A DNA stretch of 64,000 bases, from assembly GCA_963707865.1 (NCBI GenBank), contig OY970175.1, positions 208,748-272,747 of the forward strand, in the 5' to 3' direction. The translations under genes and the position numbers were made by a program. Below, one piece after another: positions 2,839 to 27,970 of this stretch; within the stretch, counting starts at the first letter, position 1; the number at the start of each line of letters is the position of its first letter. A model generated the notes under the pieces. That model searched no databases, was not told where the DNA came from, and worked only from the letters and a program-made list of their open reading frames with translations. Source of the stretch: an uncultured bacterium. GTDB taxonomy: Bacteria; Patescibacteriota; Minisyncoccia; UBA6257; 2-01-FULL-56-20.

Positions 2839-5800
2839 TTACTGTGAGCAGAGTTGATTCAGAACTGATCGGGTCGCGGAACCTACATAACCATTGCCGG
2901 AAGTGAGGCCGTTCGGTGTGAGAATCTCATCAGCAAAGATGTTCTGGAAGATGATGACCGCATTCTTCGTGGCATCACCGAAGTAGGTGCTCTCATTGCC
3001 CGGTGAGCCCGCGCCGCTCTTTGCCACTTGCGTGAGGTTGCTCATATTCAGGACCGTCTGCAGCGACTTCACGTCAGCATCGTTCGTGCCCTGGTGCAGG
3101 TTCTTGTTGAACTGGGCCGAGCAGGAAGCGTCTTTGAGCTGTTGCGTGACTAGTTTTTTCTCAAGCGCGATCAGTTGCTGCGTCAAGCTCTGGAGAAGCT
3201 GGAGGAGTGTCCCTGGATTCGTCGTTGAAGCACCCAAGACCTGGCCACCGCCATTGCCCGTTGTGATCGTCGGTGGGTAGTAGCCACCGCTGCCACCGCC
3301 ACCACCACCGGAAGTCACGATCATGCTATTGCTGCTGGAATTACCGGAGGGTGGCGTCACACTGCCAGTAGTCGTCACGGCCATTTCATCTCCCACGCTC
3401 TCCGGCGAGCCTTGCGAAACAGAGCGGAGATAGTAGGTGGTACCCGGCGTGAGACCGGAAGCCGTCACGCTGTGGTCGGTTGTCGTTGCAGTGTCTTCGC
3501 TGGTGGAGCTCGCGTAGCCGTAGTTCGGCGCGTCTCCGAGCGTCGCATGTGAGACCGTGTCGTAGATCACGCGGCTCGTCGCCGGGTGGTCGGTCGTCCA
3601 CGTAAGCGTGATGGATGTGTCAGCGGCGTTTGTAGAAGTTTCATTTGAGATTACGGGTGCAGGAGGTACGAATGTTTCCGTGATGGCGCAGCTCACCGAA
3701 CCGCCTGCTATGATGCCGCTCCCGTCGTTGCAGTTACCGCTCGTCCCTGCGGAGTAGTTCGCAAGCGACGGGGGATTCACATGGAATGGGGTGTTCGCGT
3801 CAATCGTGACCGCTGTGCCGGACGCATCACCCGCGAAGGTGGACGTCGGGCTCGGGTGGCCGGCGATCACCGTGACCATGAAGTCAGAGGAGGTCGCGCT
3901 GCCGCCCGCAGAGTTATCAACAACGAGCGAGACGTTCAGGGTGCTCGTCGGCGTTGGAGGCAGTTGTGTGTACGTTATGGTGCAGCTGTACGAACTGCTT
4001 GCAGCCACCGTGCCGCTACAATCTCCCAAGGCACCGACGGTGTAGTCGTCCACCGCCGCGCCTGCAACCAAGAACACATCACCGTCATTCAAGGTCACTG
4101 GTCCTGCATATGGAGCGGTCGTACTGTTGACTGTGACCGAAGCCCCTGCTCCGAGAGGAGTCTCCGGAACGGTCACTGTGAGGGTTGAGGTGGCAAAGGA
4201 TCCGCCGCCACCGCCACCGCCACCACCACCACCGCCACCTGACGTGCCTTGTGTGTACGTTATGGTGCAGCTGTACGAACTGCTTGCAGCCACCGTGCCG
4301 CTACAATCTCCCAAGGCACCGACGGTGTAACCGTCCACCGCCGCGCCTGCAACCAAGAACACATCACCGTCATTCAAGGTCACCGGTCCTGCATATGGAG
4401 CGGTCGTACTGTTGACTGTGACCGAAGCCCCTGCTCCGAGAGGAGTCTCCGGAACGGTCACTGTGAGGGTTGAGGTGACGATTGGGTTCTCGCTGGGTGA
4501 GATGTTCACCTCCGTGCCATCATTCGCATTTGTCTGAATAGGAACATTGTAATGACTGTCGGTCACCGAGACATCAGATCCATTCGCGATCTCGAACTGG
4601 AAGTTCTTGCCCGGAGAACCGGCCACATCTGCGAACACTTGAACACTATTAACTCCGGTGATTAACGTGGCGGGAGTTCCTGATGCATCAAAGAAAGCGG
4701 TGTTGTCTTGGGCCACTGAAGTGAGCGTCTGTCCCACCTGCGTGCCATCAACTATCAGTTTCACGTTCTGAAGATCGCCGCTACTTGCGGAGCCGACCAC
4801 GCTGAAGCGAATGCTGTTTAAGAGGACGGGGCTGTTATAGACGGAGAAGTCCCACGCGCCGACAAGGTCATTCGTAGTGTTCACATTCAATGTGTCCCCG
4901 ATGGCAGACGAGGCGATCGTCAACTCTGCAAGCGATGGGTTCTCGTATGCCGACGCGTGAACCGTCAAGATATAGCTTGAACTCGCTATATTGCTTTGCA
5001 CGTTGTTGCCATTCACCGAGACGCTGACCGTTGAGCTGCCAACGTCGCCTATTTGCGGAGTGCCGCTCACCGTTGCGGTGTCGCCGGCGGTCGTCGAGGT
5101 TGCCCATGCCGGCAAGCCCGTGATCTGCCAGGTCAAGGTATCTACTGGGTCGGTCGAGGTTGCAACGATGGTTGCACTGTACGGGGTATCTGCGGTCGCC
5201 GTGTCAGGCGTGAGACCCGAGACGATCGTGATCGTTGGCGCAGCGTTCACCGAGATTGAGAAGTCCTGAGTCGTCGGGGTACTTGCCGGGTTCGCGCCCG
5301 TTGCGACCAAGCTTACCGTCGAGGAGCCAAGATTGATTACTCCTGGCGTACCGGAGATGGTCGCCGTGTCGCCGTTCGCGACAAACGATGTGATCCATGC
5401 AGGCAGCGGCGTTGAAGTGCTCAGAGTCAGGGTATCCGCCGGATTGGTTGAGGTGGCGGTGATCGTCGTCGCGTAGAGGACGCCAACCGTCGCGTCAGGA
5501 AGCGGCGAAGTTGTGACAAACGAGATTGCCGGAGCGGTGCTCACTGTGATCGTATCGATCAGAGAACCGACACTCGCGGCGTTCGAGGTGCTCGTTGCGT
5601 TCACATTCAGAATAATCGGGTCGGTCGTGGTCGGGGTGCCTGTGACGGTGAGCGTTGTCTCTGTTGAAGTGCTCGTGAAGCCGTCAGGCAGACCGGTTAT
5701 ATCGAAGACGAAAGTGTCCGTCGCATTGCTGTCGCTTGCCGTGAAGGTTTGGCTAAACGGCACGCCTACTTGAGCCACGTCAGGCGATGAGGTCGCGATC

Positions 5801-13987: not shown

Positions 13988-14938
13988 TCATGTCCGTACA
14001 TTTGTCCCCTCGATAGATTGAAGATATTCGACCGGCGTCTTTCCGGCAAGGGCAAGGTGAGGACAGATGGTATTGTACCAGGCACAGTAAGCGGCCTGTT
14101 TTTGTTTTGCCTCGGCCACGGTGCGGAACGCCACCTTGTTCCAGAACCGTTCCCGGTCGTTGCGGTGGGAACGTTCCACCTTGCCGTTCTGCGCGGGATG
14201 CCCGGGAGCGATGAGATAGTGGACCATCTTCTGTTTTGCGCAGGCGAGGTCGAACGGATGCAACCGCGGCTTCATGGGGTCAGCTGATTTCGGATATCCT
14301 ATGTAGCGATTCGTAAAGATGGATCCGTTGTCGGTCTTCACCGCACGGATGCGGAACGGTGCGGCCGCAATGACCCTTTCGAGAAACAGGATCGCGGTTC
14401 TCGTGGATTGTTCCTGGGTTACCCACAGATGCCGCCACCGGGTGCAGCAGTCGATCGCGGTGAACTGGTAGAGCCAGTTGCCCTTGAATTTCCTCACGTA
14501 GACGACGTCGATCTCCACCATCTCGCCGGGGAACGTGGCCGTCGGTTTCCACTTTTCCTTGGGCGTGAGACGCTTCTTCGTACGCGAGAGGCCTTCACGC
14601 TTCAATACTTTTGCAATGCCGCGTGCCGAGAGCCGCATGCCTTCGCGGGCGAGGAGGTGTACGAGCACGTCCGGACCGAGATCGGTCTCCGTTCTCATAG
14701 TCCGGATCTTTTTCACGATATCTCGCGAAAACTGTTTTGGGTGTGCGTGCGGCCTGCGCGATCTGGGCACGAGGGCGCTCGCCCCGCCACTGCGATATGC
14801 CGCCACCCAACGCTTCAGCGTACGGTATGAAAATGGTGCGTGGGCAGCAATGGCCTTGATGCTCATCTCTTTTTCAAGATGCGGCCTGATCCACCGCATT
14901 CGTTCCTCCGCTGCGTCTTTGGCAAGTGTTTGTGGCAT
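13988..14938 (-). CDS. IS481-family DDE transposase
   Basis: 'FTAIDCCTRW', 'VKTDNGSIF', 'PGHPAQNGKVERSH' rve/IS481 motifs; start taken at 'MPQTLAKD' (ORF track extends to 15073). Confidence 0.85.
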   Translation of the reverse strand: MPQTLAKDAAEERMRWIRPHLEKEMSIKAIAAHAPFSYRTLKRWVAAYRSGGASALVPRSRRPHAHPKQFSRDIVKKIRTMRTETDLGPDVLVHLLAREGMRLSARGIAKVLKREGLSRTKKRLTPKEKWKPTATFPGEMVEIDVVYVRKFKGNWLYQFTAIDCCTRWRHLWVTQEQSTRTAILFLERVIAAAPFRIRAVKTDNGSIFTNRYIGYPKSADPMKPRLHPFDLACAKQKMVHYLIAPGHPAQNGKVERSHRNDRERFWNKVAFRTVAEAKQKQAAYCAWYNTICPHLALAGKTPVEYLQSIEGTNVRT

Positions 14939-14980
14939 ATTCCCCAGCTTACGCTTCGAGGGGCCATATGTATGTGCAGA
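13992..14980 (-). mobile_element. IS481-family insertion sequence (copy A)
   Basis: Imperfect terminal inverted repeats 'TGTCCGTACATTTGTCCCCTCGA' (13992..14014) and 'TCGAGGGGCCATATGTATGTGCAGA' (14956..14980), ~18/23 matching; single DDE transposase inside. Confidence 0.8.
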
Positions 14981-15033
14981 GTACCTTGTTGACTGGCGAA
15001 ATCGCAGGAATCGTGGTATAATAGGAACAGAAC

Positions 15034-17022
15034 ATGGAGGAAGTTCCGGATAAAAACGTAATATATTTCGCACGAACCGATTTTCGCAATCAAGATCGGC
15101 TTTTTGGTATTAAGCGGAGCGACCGGCGCCAGCATATGTATGTCATAGGAAAAACCGGTACCGGCAAAAGCGCGCTCCTCAACAATATGGCCGTGCAGGA
15201 TATCGCGAACGGCGAGGGGCTTTGCGTGGTGGACCCGCATGGTGAGCTCGTGGAGGGGCTTATGAAAAGGATCCCGGAGGAACGGATGAAGGATGTCATC
15301 TATTTCAATCCGGCAGATACGGATTTTCACATCGGCTTCAACGTGCTGGAGCTGCCCGACCCAAAGTACAAGCACCTTGTGGCATCGGGACTCATGGGAA
15401 TTTTCACAAAGATTTGGGCGGGCGTCTGGTCGCCGCGCATGGAATACATTTTGAATAATTGCGTGCTCGCGCTCTTGGATACTCCGGGTTCCACGCTCCT
15501 CGGCATCCCTCGGCTTCTGACCGACAAAGATTACCGGCAGAAGATCATCGCGAACATAAAAGACCCCGTCGTGAAGGCGTTTTGGATCCACGAATTTGAA
15601 GGGTGGCAGGACCGGTTCAGGAACGAGGCCATCGCGCCGATACAGAACAAGGTGGGCCAATTCCTTTCCACCGCGCTTATCCGCAACATCGTCGGCCAAT
15701 CAAAGAGTACTGTGGACATTTTTGACGTGATGAACGAGGGAAAAATCTTCCTTGTGAATGTTTCCAAGGGTCGCATCGGGGAGGACAATTCTGCGCTCCT
15801 GGGCGCGATGCTTATCACGAAGATCCAGCTTTCGGCAATGGAGCGCGTGCGCGTCCCCGAGGACGAACGTGTGGACTTTTATCTTTATGTGGACGAGTTC
15901 CAGAACTTCGCCACGGATTCCTTCGCGGGCATCCTTTCCGAAGCGCGGAAGTACCGCCTGGATCTTATTCTCGCGCACCAATATATCGGCCAGCTCATCA
16001 CCGACACTTCGACGAGGGTGCGCGACGCGATCTTTGGTAACGTGGGAACAATGGTCACGTTCCGGGTGGGTGCTACCGATGCGGAGTTCCTGGAGAACGA
16101 GTTCACGCCTGAGTTCGTGATAGAAGACATCGTAAATCTTCCGAATTATTCCATCTATCTGAAGCTTATGGTGGACGGCGTGACGGCGCGCCCATTTTCC
16201 GCGGCCACGCTCCCCCCGCTTCAGGTGAAAACTTCCGCGATGGTAGAATCCGAGATCATCAGGATGTCACAGAAGCGCTACGCCCGGCCGCGCGAGGTCG
16301 TAGAGGAAGAGATCAATCGCTGGAGCGGCGTGATGGGACCGCCTGCGGCTACCAGTGCGGAAAAGAAAGGCGGAGATACGACGAGGTACGAAGCCGTATG
16401 TTCTTCATGCGGCAAGATGACGACGTTGCCGTTCGAGCCGACGCCGGGCCGGCCGGTGTATTGCCGCGATTGTTTGAAGAAAATAGAAGCAGGCGAACTT
16501 CAACCGATACGGGTGCCGCGCGCGTCAGTCGTACGCACGAGACCGCAGAAAAAATACGCAGATGATTTGAGTTATCTCGGCATTGAGTTCCCGGAGCAGG
16601 GAGCGCCGGCCGAGCTGCAGCCGGCGACGAGAAGGGCGCCGGTACCGGTGCGTCCCATGGGTTCCATGGATGGAAGGGGAGGGGCAGGAGCACCAATTTC
16701 CGGTTACGGGCCAAAAGCGGCCATGCCAACCTCTGTACCGGCCGCTGCGCCAGCCGCGCCGCCATCCGCCGAGCCGGCGGGGCGGACGCTTTCGCTATCT
16801 GAATTGAAATCGGCGGATCGGAGACCGAAGCTGAAGAAATCGCAACAACACGAGGAGATCAACATTTCCGAACTTCGGGAGGCAATCAAGGCATCATTGA
16901 GCGCAGATATCGGTGCGGGCTCCGCGCAGGCCGCCGAGGCGGAAAAAAGCGTCAGCGCTGACACCGATAAACGGGATGGCGAAGAAGACGGCAGCGACGA
17001 GGAGCGTGTGCGCCGCATTTGA
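15034..17022 (+). CDS. TraD/VirD4-like P-loop ATPase paralog with C-terminal CxxC-x17-CxxC zinc ribbon and long low-complexity acidic/Ala-Pro tail
   Basis: Walker A 'GKTGTGKS', 'VDPHGE', Walker B 'LYVDEFQNF', 'AHQYIGQL'; 'CSSCGKMTTLPFEPTPGRPVYCRDC'. Confidence 0.8.
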   Translation: MEEVPDKNVIYFARTDFRNQDRLFGIKRSDRRQHMYVIGKTGTGKSALLNNMAVQDIANGEGLCVVDPHGELVEGLMKRIPEERMKDVIYFNPADTDFHIGFNVLELPDPKYKHLVASGLMGIFTKIWAGVWSPRMEYILNNCVLALLDTPGSTLLGIPRLLTDKDYRQKIIANIKDPVVKAFWIHEFEGWQDRFRNEAIAPIQNKVGQFLSTALIRNIVGQSKSTVDIFDVMNEGKIFLVNVSKGRIGEDNSALLGAMLITKIQLSAMERVRVPEDERVDFYLYVDEFQNFATDSFAGILSEARKYRLDLILAHQYIGQLITDTSTRVRDAIFGNVGTMVTFRVGATDAEFLENEFTPEFVIEDIVNLPNYSIYLKLMVDGVTARPFSAATLPPLQVKTSAMVESEIIRMSQKRYARPREVVEEEINRWSGVMGPPAATSAEKKGGDTTRYEAVCSSCGKMTTLPFEPTPGRPVYCRDCLKKIEAGELQPIRVPRASVVRTRPQKKYADDLSYLGIEFPEQGAPAELQPATRRAPVPVRPMGSMDGRGGAGAPISGYGPKAAMPTSVPAAAPAAPPSAEPAGRTLSLSELKSADRRPKLKKSQQHEEINISELREAIKASLSADIGAGSAQAAEAEKSVSADTDKRDGEEDGSDEERVRRI

Positions 17023-17961: not shown

Positions 17962-18843
17962 TTATTGCTCAAACCTGCTCCTAAAAAGATTCTGCAGATT
18001 TTGCAGTCGCCCAAAGAGTTGGTTCAAGCGGTTGCTGAATCCGTTTATACTGGAGCTCGTTATGCCGTTTTCGCTTTCGTTCCCGTTGTTCCCGCTACCT
18101 TCGTTCTTGCCGTTCTCTTTTCCCTTGCCGCCCAAAGGGCCATTGGGATTGCCGGATGGCGGTCCGGTCCGCAGAACGGTGATGCTGTAGTCCCGTACCA
18201 CATCCGCGTTCACGACTAGCGGGGAGCTTGTAGCAACCTGACCCGTAACGCCAAGCTGGTCGCCAGCTAAGAGCTGGCTCAAGCTGAACGTTCCGCCGCT
18301 ATTGCCTCCGCGGAGATAGAAATCCGGTCTTCGCCCGTTCGTGGAGCTTGAGACGTTCACTGTGTAGGTGATGCCCCACACTGTGCCCGTAAAGGAATTA
18401 CTGCCCACGCTTTGCACGATGAGATCGCGCGCAAGGAAGTTGCCGTTTGGACCAATTTGGAGCTGGGGCGAAAGATTGACCGAAACGTGTGTCGTTGTGG
18501 ACGATGTGCTGAAGTAGGTGATGGTCCCCGAGCATGAGCCGTTGGCCACGCTTGAAGAAGCATCCGTCACCCGCACCGATGCACTATAGGTGCTATTCGC
18601 CCCGTACGTTGCTGTGGTTGAGGTACTCGTGCTGCTCGCTACGCCCGCATCGCCCGACCAAAGGTAGGCGTAGGGAGCGACGCCGCCGCTCGCAGACGCC
18701 AACCAGGTTATGGTGTTGTTGGATACCGAAGCCGCGCACGTCGCTTGGAGCGCAGCCGTTTGGGCGCTCGCGAGGGATACGCCGACAATGATCGCAGCGA
18801 ACATAACAGTACCTGCCACGCCAATAATTAGTTTGTTGTTCAT
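17962..18843 (-). CDS. Secreted Ser/Thr/Gly-rich protein
   Basis: Signal peptide 'MNNKLIIGVAGTVMFAAIIVGVSLASAQ'; low-complexity extracellular-type composition. Confidence 0.6.
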   Translation of the reverse strand: MNNKLIIGVAGTVMFAAIIVGVSLASAQTAALQATCAASVSNNTITWLASASGGVAPYAYLWSGDAGVASSTSTSTTATYGANSTYSASVRVTDASSSVANGSCSGTITYFSTSSTTTHVSVNLSPQLQIGPNGNFLARDLIVQSVGSNSFTGTVWGITYTVNVSSSTNGRRPDFYLRGGNSGGTFSLSQLLAGDQLGVTGQVATSSPLVVNADVVRDYSITVLRTGPPSGNPNGPLGGKGKENGKNEGSGNNGNESENGITSSSINGFSNRLNQLFGRLQNLQNLFRSRFEQ

Positions 18844-18908
18844 GCAATTGAATATAAATCGACCTTTCCGTCTTGATTATACGGAGGTCCCGTTGATTAG
18901 TTACGTCC

Positions 18909-19268
18909 TTAACCGGTCAGTGGACCCACTTTTTCCTCTTCGTCTTTGTTCTCGCGGAATCCGCCGGCCTGGATACTCCACAGTTTTTGGTAAAGGCCGC
19001 CCTGTGTGAGAAGGTCGCGATGGTTGCCGTGGGCGACAACCTTCCCGTTCTCAATGACCACAATGCGGTCCATCTTCATGATGGTGGAAAGGCGATGGGC
19101 GATTACAATGACAGTCTTTCCTTTCATGAGCGTTTGGAGGGCATCCTGAATAAGGGCTTCGGATTCAGAGTCCAAACTTGACGTTGCCTCGTCCAAGACG
19201 AGGATAGGCGCGTTTTTGAGGATCGCACGGGCGATAGCCACCCTTTGGCGTTCGCCGCCAAAGCGCAC
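18909..19268 (-). pseudogene. Truncated ABC exporter ATP-binding protein (C-terminal ~120 aa only: signature, Walker B, H-loop)
   Basis: '[35 protein letters not shown]...VIAHRLSTI' (MsbA-like exporter NBD C-terminus). The frame is closed by a stop at 19281..19283; the Walker A region and the TMD are absent. The truncation point coincides with the low-GC island boundary. Confidence 0.7.
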
Positions 19269-19370
19269 AAACGGGACTCTCTAGGGCATTTGGGACTCGT
19301 TCGGTTTGACTAACATTACCCCTTACCAATGCCTTTGACTAAATTGAAAAATAGTTGTAAGGTTTAAAAT

Positions 19371-19742
19371 ATGCCTAAAATAATCACAAAACCTACGAGA
19401 ATCGAAGAAAATGGCGATAAAATCAAAATCGTTGAAGAGTATATTGGATTAGCCAATAGTAAGGATAAAAACGTTAGCATTGCTCATATGCGTGCCCCTA
19501 CGGGCTGGAAAGACCTCGGACAATGCCCAGAGTTTGATGAATTTACTATTGTTTTAAATGGTGTCTTACAGGTCGAATTTAAAGGGGGATCAATCGATAT
19601 TAAAGCTGGTCAAGCCGCGATAATGCACAAAGGCGAATGGGTTCGTTATAGCAGTTCGGACCCAGATGGGGTGGAATATATTTCTGTATGTATGCCAGCT
19701 TTTTCTCCTCAGAAGGTTCATAAAGATATTTTAATGCATTAG
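19371..19742 (+). CDS. Cupin-domain small protein
   Basis: ~120 aa beta-barrel-type sequence 'GEWVRYSSSDPDGVEYISVCMP'; first gene of island. Confidence 0.55.
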   Translation: MPKIITKPTRIEENGDKIKIVEEYIGLANSKDKNVSIAHMRAPTGWKDLGQCPEFDEFTIVLNGVLQVEFKGGSIDIKAGQAAIMHKGEWVRYSSSDPDGVEYISVCMPAFSPQKVHKDILMH

Positions 19743-19798
19743 CGTTAAGATAAAATGATAAAATCGGCGAGAATAGAAATAATTTTTACTTAATTTAT

Positions 19799-20878
19799 AT
19801 GTCTAAAAAATTAGAAACAATTTCATGGATTATAAACAGCAGGTGTAATTTGGAATGTTTGCATTGTTATACTAAATCTATCCAAGGCAAAGAACTAAGG
19901 CCGGATTACTCTGAAAAAGATATAGCACTGATGGCAAAAAATATTGGTAGTGTAAATCCTAAGGTTGTTATTATTTCCGGCGGAGAACCCTTAATAGATA
20001 AAGACTTGCTAATTTTTTTAAGAGAGGCCCGCAAAATCGCTTCTGAAGAGTTATGGCTTTGCACTAATGGAATGTTGCTTTCTGATGAATTTGTGGAACT
20101 CTTGAAGAAAAAAGGTGTAAACGGCATAACCTTGAGTCTGCGTCATCCAAATCCGATAAAAGAAGCAGAAATTTCTCAAAATAACGGGATTCATGGAAGG
20201 GTATTGAAAGCTATAAAAAAAATAGAGCGGGCAGGCATACGTGTCGTGCTTGAAATGACGATAATGAAATCAAATTGTGATAGCATTGATGATTTTATAG
20301 ACTTATGCGCTTGCAACAAAGTGGACACTATAATGTTTAAAAGATTTAGACCGATTGGCCGAGGAGAAGAAAATAATTTGGCATTATCAAAAACAAAAAA
20401 TAAACAAGTATTGCACCACATTTTTTTAAGGGCGAAAAGCAATCCAAAGCTAAATATAAGAGTGCATGATCCGTTGTATAGTTTAGAAATTTATGAGCAC
20501 TTTAAAAATAACAAAATAAAAACTAATGTTCCAGATTTTGATTTTTGTTCAAATATACAAACAGATGAAAATGAATCTCAGCGTTATTGGGGTTGCAGTG
20601 CAGGAATAGAATGGGTAGGCATAGACCCCCTTGGAAACGTCAGTCCATGTCCGCTTTTGTTGTATACGGGATTGGTTATCGGCAACATAAGAGAGAATAA
20701 ATTGTCAGAAATAATGAAAACATCTCCTGTCATAAAAGCATTGGAAGATGGCTATGAAAATGGGAAGTGCTCAAAGCGCAAGATTTGTGGCGGATGCCGG
20801 TCGCACGCCGCTGCAACAGGAAAGGGGTATCTTTCAAAAGATCCTATGTGTTTGCAAGAATGCGCAGAATGTTTTTAG
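19799..20878 (+). CDS. Radical SAM enzyme with C-terminal SPASM domain
   Basis: 'CNLECLHCY' CxxxCxxC; 'SGGEPL'; C-terminal Cys cluster 'CSAG...CP...CGGCRSHA...C..C'. Confidence 0.85.
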   Translation: MSKKLETISWIINSRCNLECLHCYTKSIQGKELRPDYSEKDIALMAKNIGSVNPKVVIISGGEPLIDKDLLIFLREARKIASEELWLCTNGMLLSDEFVELLKKKGVNGITLSLRHPNPIKEAEISQNNGIHGRVLKAIKKIERAGIRVVLEMTIMKSNCDSIDDFIDLCACNKVDTIMFKRFRPIGRGEENNLALSKTKNKQVLHHIFLRAKSNPKLNIRVHDPLYSLEIYEHFKNNKIKTNVPDFDFCSNIQTDENESQRYWGCSAGIEWVGIDPLGNVSPCPLLLYTGLVIGNIRENKLSEIMKTSPVIKALEDGYENGKCSKRKICGGCRSHAAATGKGYLSKDPMCLQECAECF

Positions 20879-20911
20879 TTAAACTGAACCTTATTTACCC
20901 TTGTTTATTAT

Positions 20912-22606
20912 ATGAAAAAAGAAATTGCCTCTCTTATAAAAGAAAAATTAAAATCAATAACAGATATAGATATAAATGAAGAAGAATTAGTCGGTAAAAT
21001 TGAAATACCACCCAATAAAGAATTGGGTGATTTTGCATTCCCATGTTTTTTTGTTGCTAAAAAGGTATCTATGAGTCCCCACACCTTAGCTCTTAAATTA
21101 AAAGAACTGTTTGCTGACGTTAGCGAGTTCAATGAGGTCAAGGTAATTGGTCCATATTTAAATTTATTTGTAGATAAGGTCAATTTTACTAAAAGAGTTT
21201 TGTCAGAAATTGATCAAAATTTTTCAACTACAATTTCTGATGCAAGTAAAAGAATTGTCATAGAATTTCCATCGCCAAATACTAATAAACCATTACATCT
21301 TGGACATTTAAGAAATATGGCAATAGGCGAATCACTAGCCAGAATATTGGAAAGTAATGGCAACAAGGTGTTTAGAGTTAATTTGTTTAACGATAGAGGG
21401 ATTCATATTTGTAAGTCGATGTTGGCTTATAAAAAATTTGGGGGGAATAAGGAACCAGACAAAAAACCAGATCATTTTGTTGGCGACTATTATATAAAAT
21501 TTAACGATCTCGCAAAAGAAAATGATAACTATAATAAAGAGGCGCAAGAAATGCTTCTTCAATGGGAAAGCGGTAATGAGGAGGTTAGATCTCTTTGGAG
21601 AAAAATGAACGCATGGGCGTATCAAGGACTTAAACAAACGTTCGAATTGTTCGGTATCAAGCATGATAAATATTATTATGAAAGTGAAATATTTAATCAC
21701 GCTAAAGAACTTGTTTTGGAAGGACTAAGATCGGGCGTTTTTAAAAAACGAGATGATGGTGCTGTAATTATGGACTTAACCGAAGATGGACTAGACGAAA
21801 AGGTGCTCTTGCGGCCAGATGGTACCACGGTTTACATGACCCAAGATTTATATCTGATAAAATTAAAAGATATGGATTATAACCCGGATAAATCCATTTA
21901 CATTGTTGGGAACGAACAAGATTATCACTTTAAAGTGCTATTCCTTATAGTAAAAAAAATGGGCTGGAAACAACAATTAAAGCATTTATCATATGGAATA
22001 GTAGCACTGCCAGAAGGTAGAATGAAATCACGGGAAGGCAATGTTGTGAACGCCGATGATTTAATAGAAACGGTTACACAGCTTGCAAAGAAAGAATGTG
22101 TTGATCGCAATAAGAATATCAGTAAAGATGAGCTAGAATATAGAAGTAAAAAAATCGCATTAGCCGCCATAAAATATACCCTACTTAAACCTAATATATT
22201 TAACGATATGGTTTTTGATCCCAAGAAGTCAATTAGCTTTGACGGAGATACTGGACCATATTTACTTTATTCTTATGCGCGCGCCTCTTCTATACTAGAA
22301 AAAAGCGAGACTGAAAACAAAAACCAATCCCAAGATATAAAGAGAATAGATGTTTATGAACACGAACTAGTTAAAAAAATTAGTAATTTCCATGAAATAA
22401 TAAAAAGTGCAGCAGATGAATTAAATCCTTCAATTGTTGCTCATTATTCCTTTGATTTAGCTAAAACATTTAATGAGTTTTATCACGCCTGTCCCGTACT
22501 AAAATCTGACAATGAGGATATTAGAATAAAATTAGTTAAGGCATTTTATGTCATCTTTAAAAAATCCCTTTATTTATTAGGTATAGATGCATTGGAAAAA
22601 ATGTAA
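20912..22606 (+). CDS. argS: Arginyl-tRNA synthetase (class I aaRS), full length, encoded inside the AT-rich island
   Basis: HIGH motif 'PLHLGHLRN', KMSK-type 'RMKSREGN', C-terminal anticodon-binding DALR-like region; 564 aa. Confidence 0.85.
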   Translation: MKKEIASLIKEKLKSITDIDINEEELVGKIEIPPNKELGDFAFPCFFVAKKVSMSPHTLALKLKELFADVSEFNEVKVIGPYLNLFVDKVNFTKRVLSEIDQNFSTTISDASKRIVIEFPSPNTNKPLHLGHLRNMAIGESLARILESNGNKVFRVNLFNDRGIHICKSMLAYKKFGGNKEPDKKPDHFVGDYYIKFNDLAKENDNYNKEAQEMLLQWESGNEEVRSLWRKMNAWAYQGLKQTFELFGIKHDKYYYESEIFNHAKELVLEGLRSGVFKKRDDGAVIMDLTEDGLDEKVLLRPDGTTVYMTQDLYLIKLKDMDYNPDKSIYIVGNEQDYHFKVLFLIVKKMGWKQQLKHLSYGIVALPEGRMKSREGNVVNADDLIETVTQLAKKECVDRNKNISKDELEYRSKKIALAAIKYTLLKPNIFNDMVFDPKKSISFDGDTGPYLLYSYARASSILEKSETENKNQSQDIKRIDVYEHELVKKISNFHEIIKSAADELNPSIVAHYSFDLAKTFNEFYHACPVLKSDNEDIRIKLVKAFYVIFKKSLYLLGIDALEKM

Positions 22607-22615
22607 AATTGATTT

Positions 22616-23680
22616 ATGCCTCATTGTAAAAAAAATTGTATTAGCTTATTCGTTACAAATCAATGCAATTTATCCTGCCGGTATTGTTATTGTGAGAAAA
22701 AATCGGAAAAGCAGTCTATCAATATTGATTTTGCTAAAGCGGGCATTAACGATTTTTATTTAAATTTCGGCCATATTTATTTGCGCCTTTTCGGTGATGG
22801 AGAGCCAACTTTAGAATTTAAAAAAATTAAGTCCATTATTTCGTTTGCAAGAAAAAAAGATAAAAATGCCATAATCGAATTACAAACCAATGGCTTTTTC
22901 CCTAAAAAAATTGCCGATTATATAACTAAAAACATAGATATTGTTTGGATATCTTGTGATGGAGTACCAGAAATTCAAAATTATTATAGGCCCACTATAA
23001 ATAATACCCCGACAAGCACGATTGTCGAAAAAAATATCCGTTATTTAACTAAAAAAATTAGGACGCTAGGAATCAGAATTACCATTGGCAATAAAAATGT
23101 AAAACGACAAAAAGAAATCATCGACTATTTCAAAGATCTAGGAGTAAAATATATCTATACGGATCTATTATTTAAGCCAATAAAAAATAAATTGGGTGTT
23201 GAAGGCACGAGTCCTTTAAATTATGCCAAGCAATTTATTGTTGCTAAAAAATATGCCGAACGAAACAATATTTTTTACGGCTCTTTTTTTGAAATAAATT
23301 TTGATGGTAAAACTGATATTCACTGCAGAGCATGCAATCCATCACCTCACCTAACTTCTGATGGGTATGTTACCTGCTGTGATATGGCTTATAACGGAAC
23401 GACCTTTCCCGTTATGGTATACGGAAAATACGATCCTAAAACCAAATCAATTGTTTATTACGAAGATAAAATAAAGGTAATTCAATCGAGGCGAGTTGAC
23501 AATATTCAAGAATGTAAAAATTGCGAAATTAGATATAACTGTGCTGGGGGTTGTTTGGGCGAAGCTCTTAATGAATCGGGATCCATTTTTAGTATTAAAA
23601 AAGAAAATTGCAGAGCAATTAAATTTCTCGCCAAGCGATTGCCTTTAAATAAAAAAAAATTACCAGTTTTTCATCCATAA
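22616..23680 (+). CDS. Radical SAM enzyme with SPASM domain
   Basis: 'CNLSCRYCY'; 'FGDGEPTL'; C-terminal 'CKNCEIRYNCAGGCLGEA...C'. Confidence 0.85.
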   Translation: MPHCKKNCISLFVTNQCNLSCRYCYCEKKSEKQSINIDFAKAGINDFYLNFGHIYLRLFGDGEPTLEFKKIKSIISFARKKDKNAIIELQTNGFFPKKIADYITKNIDIVWISCDGVPEIQNYYRPTINNTPTSTIVEKNIRYLTKKIRTLGIRITIGNKNVKRQKEIIDYFKDLGVKYIYTDLLFKPIKNKLGVEGTSPLNYAKQFIVAKKYAERNNIFYGSFFEINFDGKTDIHCRACNPSPHLTSDGYVTCCDMAYNGTTFPVMVYGKYDPKTKSIVYYEDKIKVIQSRRVDNIQECKNCEIRYNCAGGCLGEALNESGSIFSIKKENCRAIKFLAKRLPLNKKKLPVFHP

Positions 23681-23689
23681 TTTAAAGTA

Positions 23690-24589
23690 ATGAGAATATT
23701 GTATTTAGTAGCAACAAATAAATGTACCCTATCATGTAGCTATTGTTTTTATAATACGGGCCTTTCTAAAAAAAGTTTATCTGATATAAAAACAGAAAAA
23801 ATCTTAGGAAAAGTAAAGTCGCTCTCAAAATATTTTGATCATGTTATTTTTACTGGCGGAGAGGCATTGCTTATAAAGGATATATTTTTACTAGCTTCAG
23901 AGTTTAAAAAGAATAAAGTTAAAACAAGCATTATAACTAACGGAACTCTATTAACTCATGATATTTGTAACAAAATATCTTCTGTATTTGATAAGGTGTC
24001 CCTTTCTTTAGATTCTCTTGATTCAAAACTAAATGATCTAACTAGGGGAAAATCTTCTATTGTAAGAAATGGGTTGAATAATTTGTTAAACGTTAGGTCA
24101 GAAAGCCTTGAGATTGAAATAATACAGACAATTACGGCTGTAAATTATGAATCCATTGATGAGATGATAAAGTTTTGTAATGAAAAAAACATAAAACTTT
24201 GGCTTCCGCCAGTAGATTTAAATTATAATAACCCGTTTTCTCTTAAAAGATTAAATGCTGTTCAAGTGGATAAGTTAAAAAAAAATTTTAAAAGATGGAT
24301 TAAGTTTAAGTCCGGCAATGATAAAAAAGAACAAATTGCTTTAAGCGACTTTTTGAATAATATAGAAAGTTTATTGCAAGACAAATCGATACAGATTCCT
24401 TGCAAGATGGGAGTTGAAAATTTTGTGTTAGATCCTGATGGTAACATATATGCGTGTTTTTTTAGGAAAGATCTATTTTTTGGTAACTTATATAAAGATA
24501 AATTATCGCAAATAATGAAAAAAATTCCTGGAAAAGACATATTAAGCAATTGTGTTAGTTTGGGTTGTTTATCTTGTACAGATTTTTAA
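23690..24589 (+). CDS. Radical SAM enzyme (SPASM/twitch-like C-terminal Cys cluster)
   Basis: 'CTLSCSYCF'; 'FTGGEALL'; C-terminal 'CKMG...C...CVSLGCLSC'. Confidence 0.8.
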   Translation: MRILYLVATNKCTLSCSYCFYNTGLSKKSLSDIKTEKILGKVKSLSKYFDHVIFTGGEALLIKDIFLLASEFKKNKVKTSIITNGTLLTHDICNKISSVFDKVSLSLDSLDSKLNDLTRGKSSIVRNGLNNLLNVRSESLEIEIIQTITAVNYESIDEMIKFCNEKNIKLWLPPVDLNYNNPFSLKRLNAVQVDKLKKNFKRWIKFKSGNDKKEQIALSDFLNNIESLLQDKSIQIPCKMGVENFVLDPDGNIYACFFRKDLFFGNLYKDKLSQIMKKIPGKDILSNCVSLGCLSCTDF

Positions 24590-24598
24590 ATGAAAAAG

Positions 24599-24629
24599 GA
24601 TACCCAAGGACTGTAAAGGCGTGGGTATC
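24599..24629. terminator. Hairpin (GATACCCA...TGGGTATC) between convergent island genes
   Basis: 8-bp inverted repeat between 23690..24589(+) and 24660..25538(-). Confidence 0.4.
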
Positions 24630-24659
24630 TATATCCAACTCCGTGATAAATTTGTTTTT

Positions 24660-25538
24660 TTAACTATACTTTTCTATTTTTTTAAGATCTTTTTCTCGAT
24701 TTTGTGCAATCAAAATCTCTTTTAGTGTTGCGTTAAAGTTATCAAATAGGTTATTTTGAGTTAGTATTTCATTTTTATTTTTTTCGTTAGCAGTTATTAT
24801 TACTTCACCGTTTGGTCTAACGATTATTTCCGGGTTGACAGTGTCGTTTGCTTCGCGGGTAACTTTTATTTTTCCTGAAAATTTTTTCTTTAGTTTATCT
24901 ACTTTTTCATTAAAGTCAGATGTTTCAATTAGCATTGTATCTAAGATGGGATCGCTTTCTCCCTTTCCCAATCTTCGAATTTGGTATAGTTTCCAGATAC
25001 TTTCGTTTTCTCTTATTCTTTTTTCATAGTTTAGTTTTAGCAAGAGGTTTCCTATGTTTTCCAAGTCATCAAAGTTTTGTTTAAATACGCAGGTCCCGAT
25101 TTTTAGTTTTATTTGAGGATATTTTTCAAGTATGTACTTTATTGAACTTATTGATCTTTCAAATCCTCTTTTGCCACGCCGGAAATCTATTTCTGGGCTT
25201 GATGCTTCAAGTGAGATCGCGATTGTGTTTAGGTATAGAGCTACCTTCGGCATTAGTTTAATCAGATTCGCGCCGTTTGTTTGCAAAACAATGTCTAAGC
25301 CCAGTTCTTTTTTGGCATATTTTATGAATTCGTATATTTTTGGGACCAAGGTAGGTTCTCCTCCAGTTAGTATTATTTTGGTGAGTCCAAATAATCTTAG
25401 TTTTTTTATAGCCTGTTTAAAATCATTTAGAGGTCTGTTTTCGATTTCTATTGGTGGCCCCCAACAGCCTGGGCAGTTTGCATCGCAACTACTTGTTACC
25501 TCTAAGTGAACGACAGGAGTTATAGTTAATTTTTGCAT
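24660..25538 (-). CDS. Radical SAM enzyme (no obvious SPASM domain)
   Basis: 'CDANCPGCW' CxxxCxxC; 'TGGEPTL'. Confidence 0.8.
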   Translation of the reverse strand: MQKLTITPVVHLEVTSSCDANCPGCWGPPIEIENRPLNDFKQAIKKLRLFGLTKIILTGGEPTLVPKIYEFIKYAKKELGLDIVLQTNGANLIKLMPKVALYLNTIAISLEASSPEIDFRRGKRGFERSISSIKYILEKYPQIKLKIGTCVFKQNFDDLENIGNLLLKLNYEKRIRENESIWKLYQIRRLGKGESDPILDTMLIETSDFNEKVDKLKKKFSGKIKVTREANDTVNPEIIVRPNGEVIITANEKNKNEILTQNNLFDNFNATLKEILIAQNREKDLKKIEKYS

Positions 25539-25578
25539 AAATAATTAGTAAATTTATAAATATTTAATTTTGTTGGTT

Positions 25579-26247
25579 TCATTTGCAATATTTTTTTGAG
25601 TAATTGTTTATTTTTTTTAAAATGTCTGGGTTTATTGTATAGTGTTGAGCATATTTTTGAATTAGACGGCGGGAGTTTGTAATTGAGTAGAAAGGTATCT
25701 TAAAATCTTCGCGTATTGATTTTTCAACTGTTTTTCCGTCACTCCTTGTTTCTAATCGGTTGGTGATTGAAATAACTGCTTGAATTTTTACGTTGAGTTT
25801 TAGCAATAGTTTTATGCACTTTCTTAAAGAATTCCCCGTTGTTACATCATCTTCGATTAAAACAAATTTTAGATTTTTCGGTACTGGCGTTACTGAGTAG
25901 TGCGTTTCTTTTGCTTGATATTTTTTCGGGTGTGATCGAAGTACTATTTGTGGAACTGTTGAAGGTTTTTTGTAATTTATTAGTGTATTTAAAACAATAG
26001 CTATTGGTGTTCCGGTTTCGGGGACCCCTAAGTAAGCATCTGGCTTTAAATTATTCTTTTTTGTGTAGGCATAGATATGCCTACACAATTTTTTCAAAGA
26101 TTCGGAGTTTTTCATGCTGTTTCTGATGTCCACATCATAATAGCTGATTCTTCCAGACTTAAGTTTGATTGGTTTTTTATTTATTATTAAGCAATCGTTA
26201 TCTAAGAGAAACTTTTCAAATTTTTCTAGTTCGAACATAATTACCAT
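25579..26247 (-). CDS. Type I phosphoribosyltransferase, orotate-PRTase (PyrE)-like paralog
   Basis: 'LKSGRISYYDVD' (compare chromosomal PyrE 'LVSGRFSPWYANW') and PRPP-binding 'VLIEDDVTTGNSL'. Confidence 0.7.
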   Translation of the reverse strand: MVIMFELEKFEKFLLDNDCLIINKKPIKLKSGRISYYDVDIRNSMKNSESLKKLCRHIYAYTKKNNLKPDAYLGVPETGTPIAIVLNTLINYKKPSTVPQIVLRSHPKKYQAKETHYSVTPVPKNLKFVLIEDDVTTGNSLRKCIKLLLKLNVKIQAVISITNRLETRSDGKTVEKSIREDFKIPFYSITNSRRLIQKYAQHYTINPDILKKINNYSKKYCK

Positions 26248-26750
26248 TTATGAATGATTGTAAGGGAATTTACCTTTATTTATTGATAGATGTTTTGCAA
26301 GATATCTGATTGCTTTATGGAACTTCTGTAATATTACAATTTTATATTATCTTTTTATTTTTGTCAAATTAAAATTCAGCTCAACCTAAGGTTTTAAAAT
26401 TTTACTGAACATACTACCGCCTGGAAGGCGGCAGGTTCACCGAGCGGCCGTCAATTTGAAATTGACTGTTGTCTTCCACCGGTTCGCCCTCTTGCTCCTT
26501 GATGTAGTCCCTGTCGAAAGATGTTTCTGAAGAGAAGGTGAGTAAAACAATAACGAAATCGATTGGGCCACTATTAATCGAAGGGCCAGTGCTTTTCGAC
26601 CGCTTTCCGAAGAATGTCGCGTGTCTCTTGCCTTCCGCCAAGTTTTTCAATCTTATGAGAGAACCCTCTCCGATGAAGAAGTGAACGGAATAATGAACGA
26701 AGTAATTGCAGCGCTGGAAGGAAAGGGGTAGGAGGTGAGAAAGTAGCCAA

Positions 26751-26993
26751 TCACCCTTTAATTTCTATGGCTCTTCTTGGGCAGCTTCTCTCTGCCATCT
26801 TTAGACAGACCATAAACTTTTTGTTTGATGTGAGTGCGGGAGGCACGGTTCTACGAACCTTAATTCCATTTTCGCCATAGGAAAAGACTTCGGGGCATAT
26901 GCTTACGCACGTACCGCACTGAGCGCACTTGCGTTTGTGATAGACAATTTTCATTTGCTGTTGGCTTTGTTGCTTCTCGCCTGATAACGACAT
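26751..26993 (-). CDS. Single-cluster 4Fe-4S ferredoxin
   Basis: 'CAQCGTCVSICP' ... 'CP'; true start may be internal Met (MKIVYHKRKC). Confidence 0.65.
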   Translation of the reverse strand: MSLSGEKQQSQQQMKIVYHKRKCAQCGTCVSICPEVFSYGENGIKVRRTVPPALTSNKKFMVCLKMAERSCPRRAIEIKG

Positions 26994-27052
26994 TTTAAAA
27001 TGGAATCGTGCTATTGTATAGGATGAAAATAGTTCAACGCATGGCTGGCATG

Positions 27053-27970
27053 TTAAAGCACCGAGCGGAGAAGCGCCATCCGGACGTAGACGCCGTTCTT
27101 GGTCTGCCGGAAGTATGCCGCCCGCACGTCGTCATCCACTTCCTTTGCGATCTCATTCACGCGGGGCAGGGGATGCACGATGATGGCCTCCTTCTTTAGT
27201 ACGCGAAGCACTCCGCTGTCTATCGTGTATGAATCTTTTACCTTGTTATATTCTGCTTCCGATTGGAACCGTTCTTTTTGCACCCGCGTGACCGAAAGCA
27301 CATCGGTCTTCCCCGCGATTGTTTTGATATCCGCTGATTCCTCCAGTGGGATATTGTGCTCTTTGAGATATGCGACATATTCGTCGGGAAGCCGCAACTG
27401 CGGCGGCGTGACGCAATACACGCGCACGTTGCGGAAAAGGGGAAGAAGAAACGCGGTGGAGTGAACCGTGCGGCTGTAGCGCAGGTCGCCGACGAAGGTG
27501 ATCACAAGGTCATCCAATCTTCCGAGTTCCTTCTGGATGGTGTAGAGATCAAGGAGCGCCTGCGTGGGGTGTTCCTTGCTGCCATCGCCCGCGTTTATGA
27601 CAGGCACGGGTGAGGTGGATGCCATCCGTTCTGCGGCGCCCGCTTCGGGATGGCGAACGATGATTACGTTTGCATAGCCGCCGACCACGTGCGCCGTATC
27701 CTCCAGTGTTTCGCCTTTCTTCGCGGAAGAGAATTCCCCGGCGCTTTCGGCGGAGATGACATTGCCGCCGAGCTTGTACATCGCGGTTTCAAACGAGAAC
27801 CGAGTGCGCGTGCTCGGTTCGTAGAATATAGTAGCTGCAATCTTTCCGGCACATTCCGCAGAGAGCTTCCCTTCCTTGTCCCGCCCTTCCATTTCTCCCG
27901 CGGTCCGGAAGAGCTCTTCAAGAAGCGGTCGATCAAGGAATTGTTTTGCGCTTAAAATGTGCTTCATCAA
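27053..27970 (-). CDS. pyrB: Aspartate carbamoyltransferase catalytic subunit
   Basis: 'STRTRFSFE', 'HPTQALLDLYT', 'HPLPRVNEI'. Confidence 0.9.
   Translation of the reverse strand: MMKHILSAKQFLDRPLLEELFRTAGEMEGRDKEGKLSAECAGKIAATIFYEPSTRTRFSFETAMYKLGGNVISAESAGEFSSAKKGETLEDTAHVVGGYANVIIVRHPEAGAAERMASTSPVPVINAGDGSKEHPTQALLDLYTIQKELGRLDDLVITFVGDLRYSRTVHSTAFLLPLFRNVRVYCVTPPQLRLPDEYVAYLKEHNIPLEESADIKTIAGKTDVLSVTRVQKERFQSEAEYNKVKDSYTIDSGVLRVLKKEAIIVHPLPRVNEIAKEVDDDVRAAYFRQTKNGVYVRMALLRSVL

Follow-up and report, generated by a model that had tools for sequence, protein, structure and literature searches.

The locus and its synthetase gene

An arginyl-tRNA synthetase (ArgRS) gene lies at positions 20912-22606 of a 64-kb stretch of DNA (the window) from the 898,885-bp contig of an uncultured member of the Minisyncoccia, within the candidate phyla radiation (CPR)/Patescibacteria; the window amounts to 7% of the genome. 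The gene is the third in a plus-strand string with the order cupin-rSAM359-ArgRS-rSAM354-rSAM299, where rSAM denotes a radical S-adenosylmethionine (SAM) enzyme, and the gaps in this string measure 56, 33, 9, and 9 bp, leaving ArgRS 33 bp from the preceding gene and 9 bp from the next. Two more genes, encoding rSAM292 and a phosphoribosyltransferase (PRTase), lie on the minus strand and converge on the plus-strand string. Together they form a cassette of seven genes: a cupin, three SPASM-type radical SAM enzymes, a radical SAM enzyme with a predicted viperin fold, a PRTase resembling orotate phosphoribosyltransferase (OPRT), and ArgRS (Table 1). No terminator-like sites were found around ArgRS, and its position in a tight co-directional string free of such sites was counted in favor of its being a cassette component. 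As argued below, ArgRS is a selected component of a rare cassette that moves horizontally among CPR genomes, and most likely a working part of it.

The encoded protein matches the NCBIfam argS equivalog TIGR00456 with 466.2 bits against a cut-off of 261.65, and its residues 6-564 correspond to positions 2-569 of the 569-position profile. Three Pfam domains exceed their gathering scores: the tRNA-binding N-terminus (Arg_tRNA_synt_N, PF03485, residues 4-87), the class I catalytic domain (tRNA-synt_1d, PF00750, residues 107-436), and the DALR anticodon-binding domain (DALR_1, PF05746, residues 451-564). The HIGH-type signature HLGH occupies residues 129-132, and the KMSK-like signature MKSR residues 371-374, or MKSR(E) residues 371-375. 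An earlier reading made from the sequence only had described a full-length ArgRS with these two motifs and an anticodon-binding C-terminus, and every part of that description is borne out. In addition, the gene is under strong purifying selection, with a ratio of nonsynonymous to synonymous substitution rates (dN/dS) of 0.09 against its counterpart at L016 (L and P numbers designate related loci and proteins, respectively).

The arginine pocket was compared with that of other ArgRSs by alignment, which places E118, N123, Y308, D312, and Q336 at the positions of E148, N153, Y347, D351, and Q375 of the yeast enzyme. The pocket motifs IEFPSPN...HLGH, DGTTVYMTQD, and VGNEQDYH are the same in cluster-linked and housekeeping ArgRSs of the window type, whereas the ArgRS type native to CPR differs from it (DYSAPN...GVGH and YLSRD versus EFPSPN/HLGH/YMTQD). 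The 49 outgroup sequences define 153 near-invariant columns, of which 129 are retained throughout the clade of cassette-linked enzymes, and the alignment of this clade with the outgroups revealed no resistance-type substitution common to all cluster-associated ArgRSs. Inspection of the active site for residues that confer inhibitor resistance, suggested together with the earlier reading, turned up a pocket that differs from that of the native Patescibacteria type and is identical to that of housekeeping members of its own type. Judged by these residues, the window ArgRS is predicted to have a canonical, unaltered arginine pocket and to be catalytically ordinary. A single local oddity was seen at residue 316 (codon ~21857-21859), four positions past the Arg-binding Asp312: all 49 outgroups and P0004-P0011 have Ala there, whereas P0001-P0003, which among the cassette ArgRSs are the closest three, have Ile, Met, or Thr.

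Phylogenetic placement, the other check suggested at the outset, assigns the cassette-linked enzymes to one clade (identity at least 64%) that is sister to housekeeping enzymes of the Falkowbacteria type. Housekeeping ArgRSs of this ~565-aa type from Falkowbacteria and DPANN archaea are 52-65% identical to the window's and have the same three domains, pocket, and signature motifs, but they stand in a housekeeping neighborhood with native composition (L010, L012), whereas the window's enzyme stands in a foreign cassette. The same clade also holds two members, at L018 and L020, that are followed by AMP-binding and AsnB-like genes. At L018 (1931-6948) and L020 (1877-6920), an ArgRS 69-70% identical to the window's precedes a convergent block that encodes an Asn-synthetase-like amidotransferase together with an AMP-binding enzyme and two unknown proteins. 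The block looks like a second small-molecule neighborhood of the window ArgRS type, and its upstream side ends at a contig edge.

Recurrence of ArgRS beside the cassette

ArgRS adjoins the cassette at seven of the eight informative loci. Searching for the cassette by way of rSAM292 or the PRTase introduces no bias for or against ArgRS, and in this sample ArgRS is adjacent in the window, L004, L019, L013, and L016, with L002 as the sole exception; an adjacent ArgRS is also seen in L003 and L017, two loci that ArgRS itself led to. The direct neighbor is rSAM354 in the window, L003, L013, L016, L017, and L019. Moreover, in three hosts of higher GC content (window, L004, and L003), the GC content at third codon positions (GC3) of ArgRS is 0.26-0.34, like that of the cassette, versus 0.47-0.67 in the host, so ArgRS travels with the cassette.

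A second kind of ArgRS takes this place in Moranbacteria. At L013, the ArgRS that adjoins five cassette genes (66-84% identity) has 622 aa, shares only 27% identity with the window enzyme, and belongs to the usual Patescibacteria housekeeping type. A relative, L021, whose argS is 84% identical to that of L013, has no cassette and no common flanks; L013 and L021 share only argS, so that an empty site for the cassette at the Moranbacteria argS locus is not definable. By our own estimate, the chance of ArgRS being adjacent to the cassette is about 2 in roughly 1000 genes, and neither chance nor simple hitch-hiking readily accounts for two ArgRS kinds beside one rare cassette. ArgRS has thus been placed beside the cassette recurrently and at least once independently. 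A further observation concerns an rSAM292 homolog (P0258, 80% identity) and an ArgRS 88% identical to that of L013 (P0134), both of which list a longest contig of 8,590 bp; if they share one contig, they may represent a second cassette beside a native-type argS.

A foreign insertion in the host genome

The cassette stands in a low-GC block (GC 0.30-0.35) with sharp edges at ~19.3-26.4 kb. ArgRS itself has a GC content of 0.324 and a GC3 of 0.26, and the island genes next to it have a GC3 of 0.23-0.34, versus 0.65-0.67 for the host genes pyrB, pyrC, and carB, in agreement with the earlier proposal that its A/T-rich codon usage follows the island and not the host. Four close-relative contigs, L006-L009, with flanks of 85-93% nucleotide identity, carry pyrC-pyrB and then an intact, 601-aa MsbA-like ABC transporter gene, all contiguous. 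By blastn against these relatives, 18933-19259 corresponds to the 3' end of the transporter gene (93% nucleotide identity) and the sequence from 27054 onward to pyrB (85-88%), while nothing in the interior, 19260-27053, aligns. With this empty site in four relatives and the break in composition, the island is a real foreign insertion accompanied by a deletion, and the proposal of a foreign island stands. The remnant of the host transporter gene has a GC content of 0.544, and since the first ~490 codons of this exporter gene are deleted, the strain is without that transporter unless another copy exists.

How the island entered was approached through its borders. No integrase domain was found in the island by Pfam and NCBIfam searches, no tRNA gene was found at its borders, the att-like or flanking direct repeats were AT-rich chance matches only, and no Rfam element, including riboswitches, matched within 18500-27500 at E ≤ 1. 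The insertion with its 1.48-kb deletion suggests illegitimate or recombinational replacement. Two side observations concern the margins of the island. Its right-hand segment is of intermediate composition and contains a ferredoxin gene; neither the empty site of the relatives nor any other cassette locus has this segment, which could be a donor flank or a separate acquisition, while the ferredoxin could act as a radical SAM reductant. On the left, an open reading frame (ORF) at 17962-18843 on the minus strand encodes a Ser/Thr/Asn-rich, secreted-looking protein of 293 aa where the relatives have an unrelated 168-aa protein, and 17986-18932 shows no nucleotide similarity to the relatives, so the locus beside the island is variable in its own right.

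One may argue that the island is an assembly artefact, i.e., a chimeric join of DNA from a low-GC organism into a high-GC contig, given the metagenomic origin of the genome and the abrupt change in composition. A short assembly obtained independently from another sequencing run, L001 (run ERR10755942), matches 19398-22654 with 100% identity, spanning cupin-rSAM359-ArgRS, which confirms the cupin-rSAM-ArgRS-rSAM order; this support is confined to the island interior. Both flanks keep the order and orientation seen in the relatives, with a clean replacement inside one gene, so that two coincident chimeric joins would be needed, and the same cassette is embedded in other, unrelated contigs. An artefact is thus extremely improbable.

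The cassette in other genomes

The cassette is rare. The rSAM292 family comprises ~10 clusters in 5.8 billion proteins, nine of them at 78-87% identity and one at 41%, followed by noise. In a collection of 185,579 species-representative genomes, which does not include the host genome, a scan with a PRTase profile found the cassette once, in Candidatus Moranbacteria RIFOXYA12_FULL_35_19 (MFSE01); the scan also detected it on three metagenome contigs. The distinct cassette loci are the window, L002, L003, L004, L013 (identical to L015), L016, L017, and L019, plus a fragment, L014. All seven genes are found in the window, L017, and L019, and the core common to the loci is rSAM299-rSAM292-PRTase. 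All cassette genes are under purifying selection (dN/dS 0.05-0.2), and cassette GC3 is below that of the surroundings in several hosts. In addition, identities are modular: rSAM354 is 93% identical to its counterpart in L002 and 77% to that in L016, versus 67% and 85%, respectively, for rSAM299, which indicates recombination among cassette variants. The cassette is therefore a rare one that moves horizontally among CPR/Patescibacteria. A phage origin was also considered and rejected, as a collection of viral contigs contained no relatives of the PRTase or ArgRS.

Individual loci offer further observations. Some way off from the L019 cassette are a phage-type integrase (3406-4350) on one side and a helix-turn-helix/M78 peptidase pair with a DNA methylase (19244-21695) on the other, which suggests that the cassette sits within a larger integrated element. 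In L002, a tRNA-Gln(CTG) gene (3321-3393) lies ~690 bp upstream of the cassette, overlapping a called DUF2204 ORF, and is a possible integration site. L003 (8289-13229) holds a divergent cassette with a PRTase of 48% identity; the interval from its PRTase block to ArgRS-rSAM354 contains two other radical SAM enzymes (315 and 397 aa) along with a glycosyltransferase, a polysaccharide deacetylase, an HprK-like protein, and a HAD phosphatase, suggesting a variant with a sugar-decorated product. Upstream of the Moranbacteria cassette (L013, 181-7388) are a weak match to an EamA-type transporter, a radical SAM enzyme (343 aa), a histidine kinase, an amidohydrolase, and a PurD-like ATP-grasp enzyme (GARS_A/GARS_C), possibly further pathway genes linking a phosphoribosyl scaffold to an amino acid. 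Just 3' of the native argS at the same locus, two 459-bp copies (14625-15083 and 16122-16580) are 89.5% identical; their 152-aa products give methyltransferase matches and, more weakly, MobA/VirD2 relaxase-like ones, a hint of mobile DNA beside the cassette.

Partner genes of ArgRS

All partner enzymes of ArgRS score below every curated family cut-off in NCBIfam, and their assignment relies on Pfam matches, alignments, and fold prediction (Table 1). The cupin has homologs of 68-78% identity in the L017 and L019 cassettes. rSAM359 is distantly NirJ/AhbD/SkfB/MoaA-like, with homologs 70-73% identical in L013, L014, L017, and L019. rSAM354 scores 101 bits with the PapB model (cut-off 340), aligns over its full length to the SPASM-type maturases PapB, anSME, and CteB, and finds its best PDB sequence matches in CteB (5wgg) and anSME, although the Pfam SPASM model itself gives no match. 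Hence, of the two SPASM radical SAM enzymes once proposed to flank ArgRS, the upstream one is confirmed by its domains, whereas the downstream one qualifies by its alignment to SPASM-type maturases and not by a Pfam SPASM match. rSAM299 homologs are 66-85% identical in L002, L004, L013, L016, L017, and L019.

The minus-strand pair deserves separate mention. rSAM292 scores 71.5 bits with the NCBIfam model of prokaryotic viperins (NF038283), below the cut-off of 180, and 87.5 bits in a full-length alignment to the PADLOC models of prokaryotic viperins (pVips). Its AlphaFold2 model has a pLDDT of 82.3, and the best 28 PDB fold matches are all viperins with bound CTP or UTP, at TM-scores of 0.62-0.73 over ~280-300 columns, including the C-terminal extension. 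rSAM292 is thus predicted to have the viperin fold. In a search for defense systems, PADLOC gave only generic pVip matches to the radical SAM cores. The PRTase, PRT222, is OPRT-like over its full length (PDB 3mjd aligned over residues 10-220, 1e-11), scores 65 bits with the pyrE model TIGR00336 (below the cut-off of 106.8), and has homologs of 84-91% identity in seven loci and 48% in L003, always beside the viperin-fold enzyme; the host's own pyrE is in the adjacent pyr operon. The best promoter-like site of the region lies upstream of this pair, but the total of such sites in the region is not above shuffled expectation, and 26339-26367 is a consensus match only.

Table 1. Features of the island and its borders (positions in the window)
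Feature	Position	Strand	Basis or description
Host ABC transporter remnant, left junction	18909..19268	-	C-terminal ~119 aa; MsbA model positions 473-570 of 572
Inserted island, ~7.8 kb	19260..27053	.	Stands in place of ~1.48 kb from the host, which encoded the first ~490 residues of an MsbA-like ABC transporter
Cupin-fold protein, 123 aa, first plus-strand gene	19371..19742	+	Weak AraC_binding/Cupin_2 matches
Radical SAM/SPASM enzyme rSAM359, 359 aa	19799..20878	+	Radical_SAM 6e-24, SPASM 1.7e-8
Arginyl-tRNA synthetase, 564 aa	20912..22606	+	ATG start; TIGR00456 and three ArgRS domains
Radical SAM enzyme rSAM354, 354 aa	22616..23680	+	Radical_SAM 1e-13; SPASM-type maturase-like
Radical SAM/SPASM enzyme rSAM299, 299 aa, conserved core	23690..24589	+	Radical_SAM 3e-19, SPASM 1.4e-5
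Radical SAM enzyme rSAM292, predicted viperin fold, 292 aa, conserved core	24660..25538	-	pVip alignment and predicted fold
OPRT-like phosphoribosyltransferase PRT222, 222 aa, conserved core	25579..26247	-	Pribosyltran 6e-10
Best promoter-like site, TTGACA-17-TAAAAT	26339..26367	-	11/12 consensus matches; upstream of PRT222 and rSAM292
Right-hand segment of intermediate composition	26400..27053	-	GC 0.45, GC3 0.48; inside the insertion, outside the conserved cassette
4Fe-4S ferredoxin ORF, 80 aa, single-cluster	26751-26993	-	Fer4_13 7e-9

Possible roles of the cassette ArgRS

The cassette probably builds a modified (phospho)ribosyl or nucleotide compound, as suggested by the viperin fold, the OPRT-like PRTase, and the nucleotide-handling neighbors at other loci (NUDIX, NTPase_I-T, HAD, HD, and PurD-like ATP-grasp proteins). 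The reading that we favor, at a probability of roughly 0.4 and by analogy to known clusters, is that ArgRS supplies Arg-tRNA(Arg) to this pathway, possibly combined with insensitivity to its product. In this model, a (phospho)ribosyl or nucleotide scaffold would be assembled and radically altered by the PRTase and viperin-fold pair and elaborated by the remaining radical SAM enzymes, and the ArgRS, presumably co-transcribed, would provide the Arg-tRNA(Arg) for arginyl transfer onto this scaffold; ArgRS may also be insensitive to the product, a dual role like that of AcmD in the ascamycin cluster. The sequence-only reading had offered immunity or aminoacyl-tRNA supply as the roles of this gene. 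As candidate roles these are still the best readings, and they gain strength from the finding that ArgRS is repeatedly, and in part independently, associated with the cassette. The Moranbacteria locus favors supply, or co-expression, over immunity alone, because the presence of a native-type ArgRS there implies that any adjacent ArgRS is useful; the unaltered arginine pocket is a second reason for preferring supply.

Several observations weigh against dedicated supply. Every cell already has an ArgRS, so that the need for a dedicated one is not obvious, and no aminoacyl-tRNA-using transferase (GNAT/Fem, CDPS, PEARL/LanB-like, or aminoacyl-tRNA synthetase [aaRS]-like) was recognized among the seven island proteins with Pfam and NCBIfam. 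No tRNA-Arg gene was found at the island or in ten related loci, and the L002 cassette has no adjacent ArgRS. Furthermore, the clade of cassette-linked enzymes includes P0010, a member in a housekeeping context; ArgRS is the most divergent cassette gene (64-87% identity versus 84-91% for the PRTase); and it is saturated at synonymous sites while the core genes are not, indicating a partly separate history.

The last three of these points, the absence of cluster-specific changes in ArgRS, and the lack of the gene in L002 would also fit a cassette that merely adjoined the housekeeping argS of a low-GC donor, so that the synthetase was carried along without a role and is at most a redundant ArgRS; divergence and synonymous saturation in excess of the core are expected if the core was exchanged among genomes that kept their own argS. 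Nevertheless, ArgRS in the window stands inside the cassette, with a radical SAM gene on either side, it has the cassette composition in three compositionally different hosts, its juxtaposition in Moranbacteria with a 27%-identical ArgRS type is very unlikely to arise by chance, and a useless 1.7-kb gene is unlikely to stay at a dN/dS of ~0.09 in sub-megabase genomes. A passenger gene is thus a somewhat unlikely explanation.

Immunity alone requires that the cassette makes an ArgRS inhibitor, e.g., an arginyl-adenylate mimic on a nucleotide derived from the PRTase and viperin-fold enzyme, to which the cassette ArgRS is naturally insensitive and the native one is not, so that translation would continue with the cassette enzyme. 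Nucleotide-type chemistry suits such an aminoacyl-adenylate mimic, and a stand-in for an essential enzyme has to be full length and under strong purifying selection, as this ArgRS is. The cassette ArgRS also differs from the usual Patescibacteria type in sequence (27% identity) and in the EFPSPN/HLGH/YMTQD motifs in place of DYSAPN/GVGH/YLSRD, and there is an experimental precedent in a tiarin-cluster ArgRS of divergent type with a different pocket, which was shown to confer immunity (doi 10.64898/2025.12.02.691738). However, cluster and housekeeping ArgRSs of the same type share their pocket motifs without any clade-wide substitution, the L002 cassette does without ArgRS, and the native-type ArgRS beside the Moranbacteria cassette would be explicable only as coincidence. 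Moreover, no exporter or uptake-peptide gene was recognized in the cassette with Pfam and NCBIfam. A precursor peptide was not recognized either. Taken as a whole, immunity alone is unlikely.

Compatible with supply, immunity, or a passenger gene is a xenologous replacement, by which the island ArgRS is now the only ArgRS of the host and the island has become indispensable. aaRS genes are often exchanged horizontally, and a tblastn search of the window with ArgRS matched only itself, with no second argS; likewise, no protein from the 898,885-bp source contig was among the best 120 matches of a native-type ArgRS query against a large protein database. The window covers only 7% of the genome, however, and the island is recent, being unameliorated (GC3 0.26 versus 0.66) and absent from relatives of 85-93% nucleotide identity, which implies that the lineage had its own argS until recently. 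Hence, the host genome probably holds a second argS, and replacement is quite improbable.

Implications for CPR bacteria

The genomes of CPR/Patescibacteria are smaller than a megabase, and these bacteria are seen as having little specialized metabolism. A seven-gene cassette with four radical SAM enzymes that spreads, is kept by purifying selection, and repeatedly has ArgRS as its neighbor would be a rare and costly accessory pathway in such organisms, and suggests an undescribed pathway that needs or targets ArgRS. Should ArgRS be a donor or immunity gene, the cassette would point to a new compound of nucleotide type for which arginyl-tRNA synthesis is either a resource or a target. One may speculate further, as a long shot, that this CPR pathway makes an arginylated, radically modified nucleotide analog, that the Arg-tRNA(Arg) of the cassette is used by a SPASM-type radical SAM enzyme or the cupin as a new aminoacyl-tRNA-dependent class, and that the product targets the bacterial host of the CPR cell or its phages. 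We found no published link between ArgRS and radical SAM clusters, nor between viperin and PRTases. Albomycin biosynthesis may combine radical SAM enzymes with a resistant SerRS, a parallel that was given no weight here. In any case, accessory cassettes can bring along an aaRS gene, here into a genome to which another type of the enzyme is probably native, judging from the usual Patescibacteria type; this matters for aaRS phylogeny and for completeness estimates of such genomes.

Comparison with known systems

Prokaryotic viperins are often paired with nucleotide kinases. rSAM292 resembles them in its predicted full-length viperin fold and in being always paired with a nucleotide-forming enzyme, but differs in its ~20% identity and a score below the cut-off, in a partner that is a PRTase and not a kinase, and in having three further radical SAM enzymes and ArgRS beside it.

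Cluster-encoded ArgRS genes have been reported from tiarins, trifolitoxin-like peptides of ribosomal origin that carry post-translational modifications (RiPPs), in 2025: the ArgRS variants of these clusters provide immunity, and the housekeeping copy is always elsewhere (doi 10.64898/2025.12.02.691738). Thus, the earlier suggestion that an Arg-specific case is unusual should be toned down, although tiarins are a different kind of cluster. The cassette ArgRS is like the tiarin ArgRS(BGC) in being encoded in a (here putative) biosynthetic cluster, in its divergence from the housekeeping type, and in an arginine pocket unlike that of the native type. What sets tiarin clusters apart is their X-Q-G-C precursor peptide and their TfxB/C/YcaO-type enzymes, which the cassette does not have. 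That the cassette is itself a tiarin cluster was considered and ruled out, as it has no X-Q-G-C precursor and no Tfx-type enzymes, all being radical SAM, PRTase, or cupin. A six-frame search of the island and seven cassette loci for RQ[GAS]C gave three isolated matches in short non-coding frames, none of them conserved.

Supply of aminoacyl-tRNA by a cluster-encoded aaRS has its precedents in Streptomyces. The additional AlaRS of the ascamycin cluster, AcmD, provides AcmF with Ala-tRNA and shows reduced sensitivity to ascamycin, and SbzA, a copy of IleRS, resists SB-203208 and installs its isoleucyl group (PMC12945691). These clusters resemble the cassette in having a full-length aaRS gene within a nucleoside-type cluster, the product type of the cassette being inferred. 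They are specific to Ala or Ile and include an aaRS-like transferase, whereas the cassette is specific to Arg, has four radical SAM enzymes, a PRTase, and a cupin, has no aaRS-like transferase, and occurs in CPR hosts. In valanimycin biosynthesis, as summarized in the same source, the SerRS VlmL supplies Ser-tRNA for VlmA (PMC12945691, citing Garg et al. 2008); VlmL is a parallel to the model proposed here as a cluster-encoded aaRS dedicated to aminoacyl-tRNA supply, but its cluster has a GNAT-fold aminoacyl-tRNA transferase, VlmA, of which no counterpart is recognizable in the cassette. An aaRS gene in a biosynthetic cassette is therefore already known, and what is unusual is the setting: the specificity for arginine, the company of four radical SAM enzymes around a viperin-fold/PRTase core, and the occurrence in CPR hosts.

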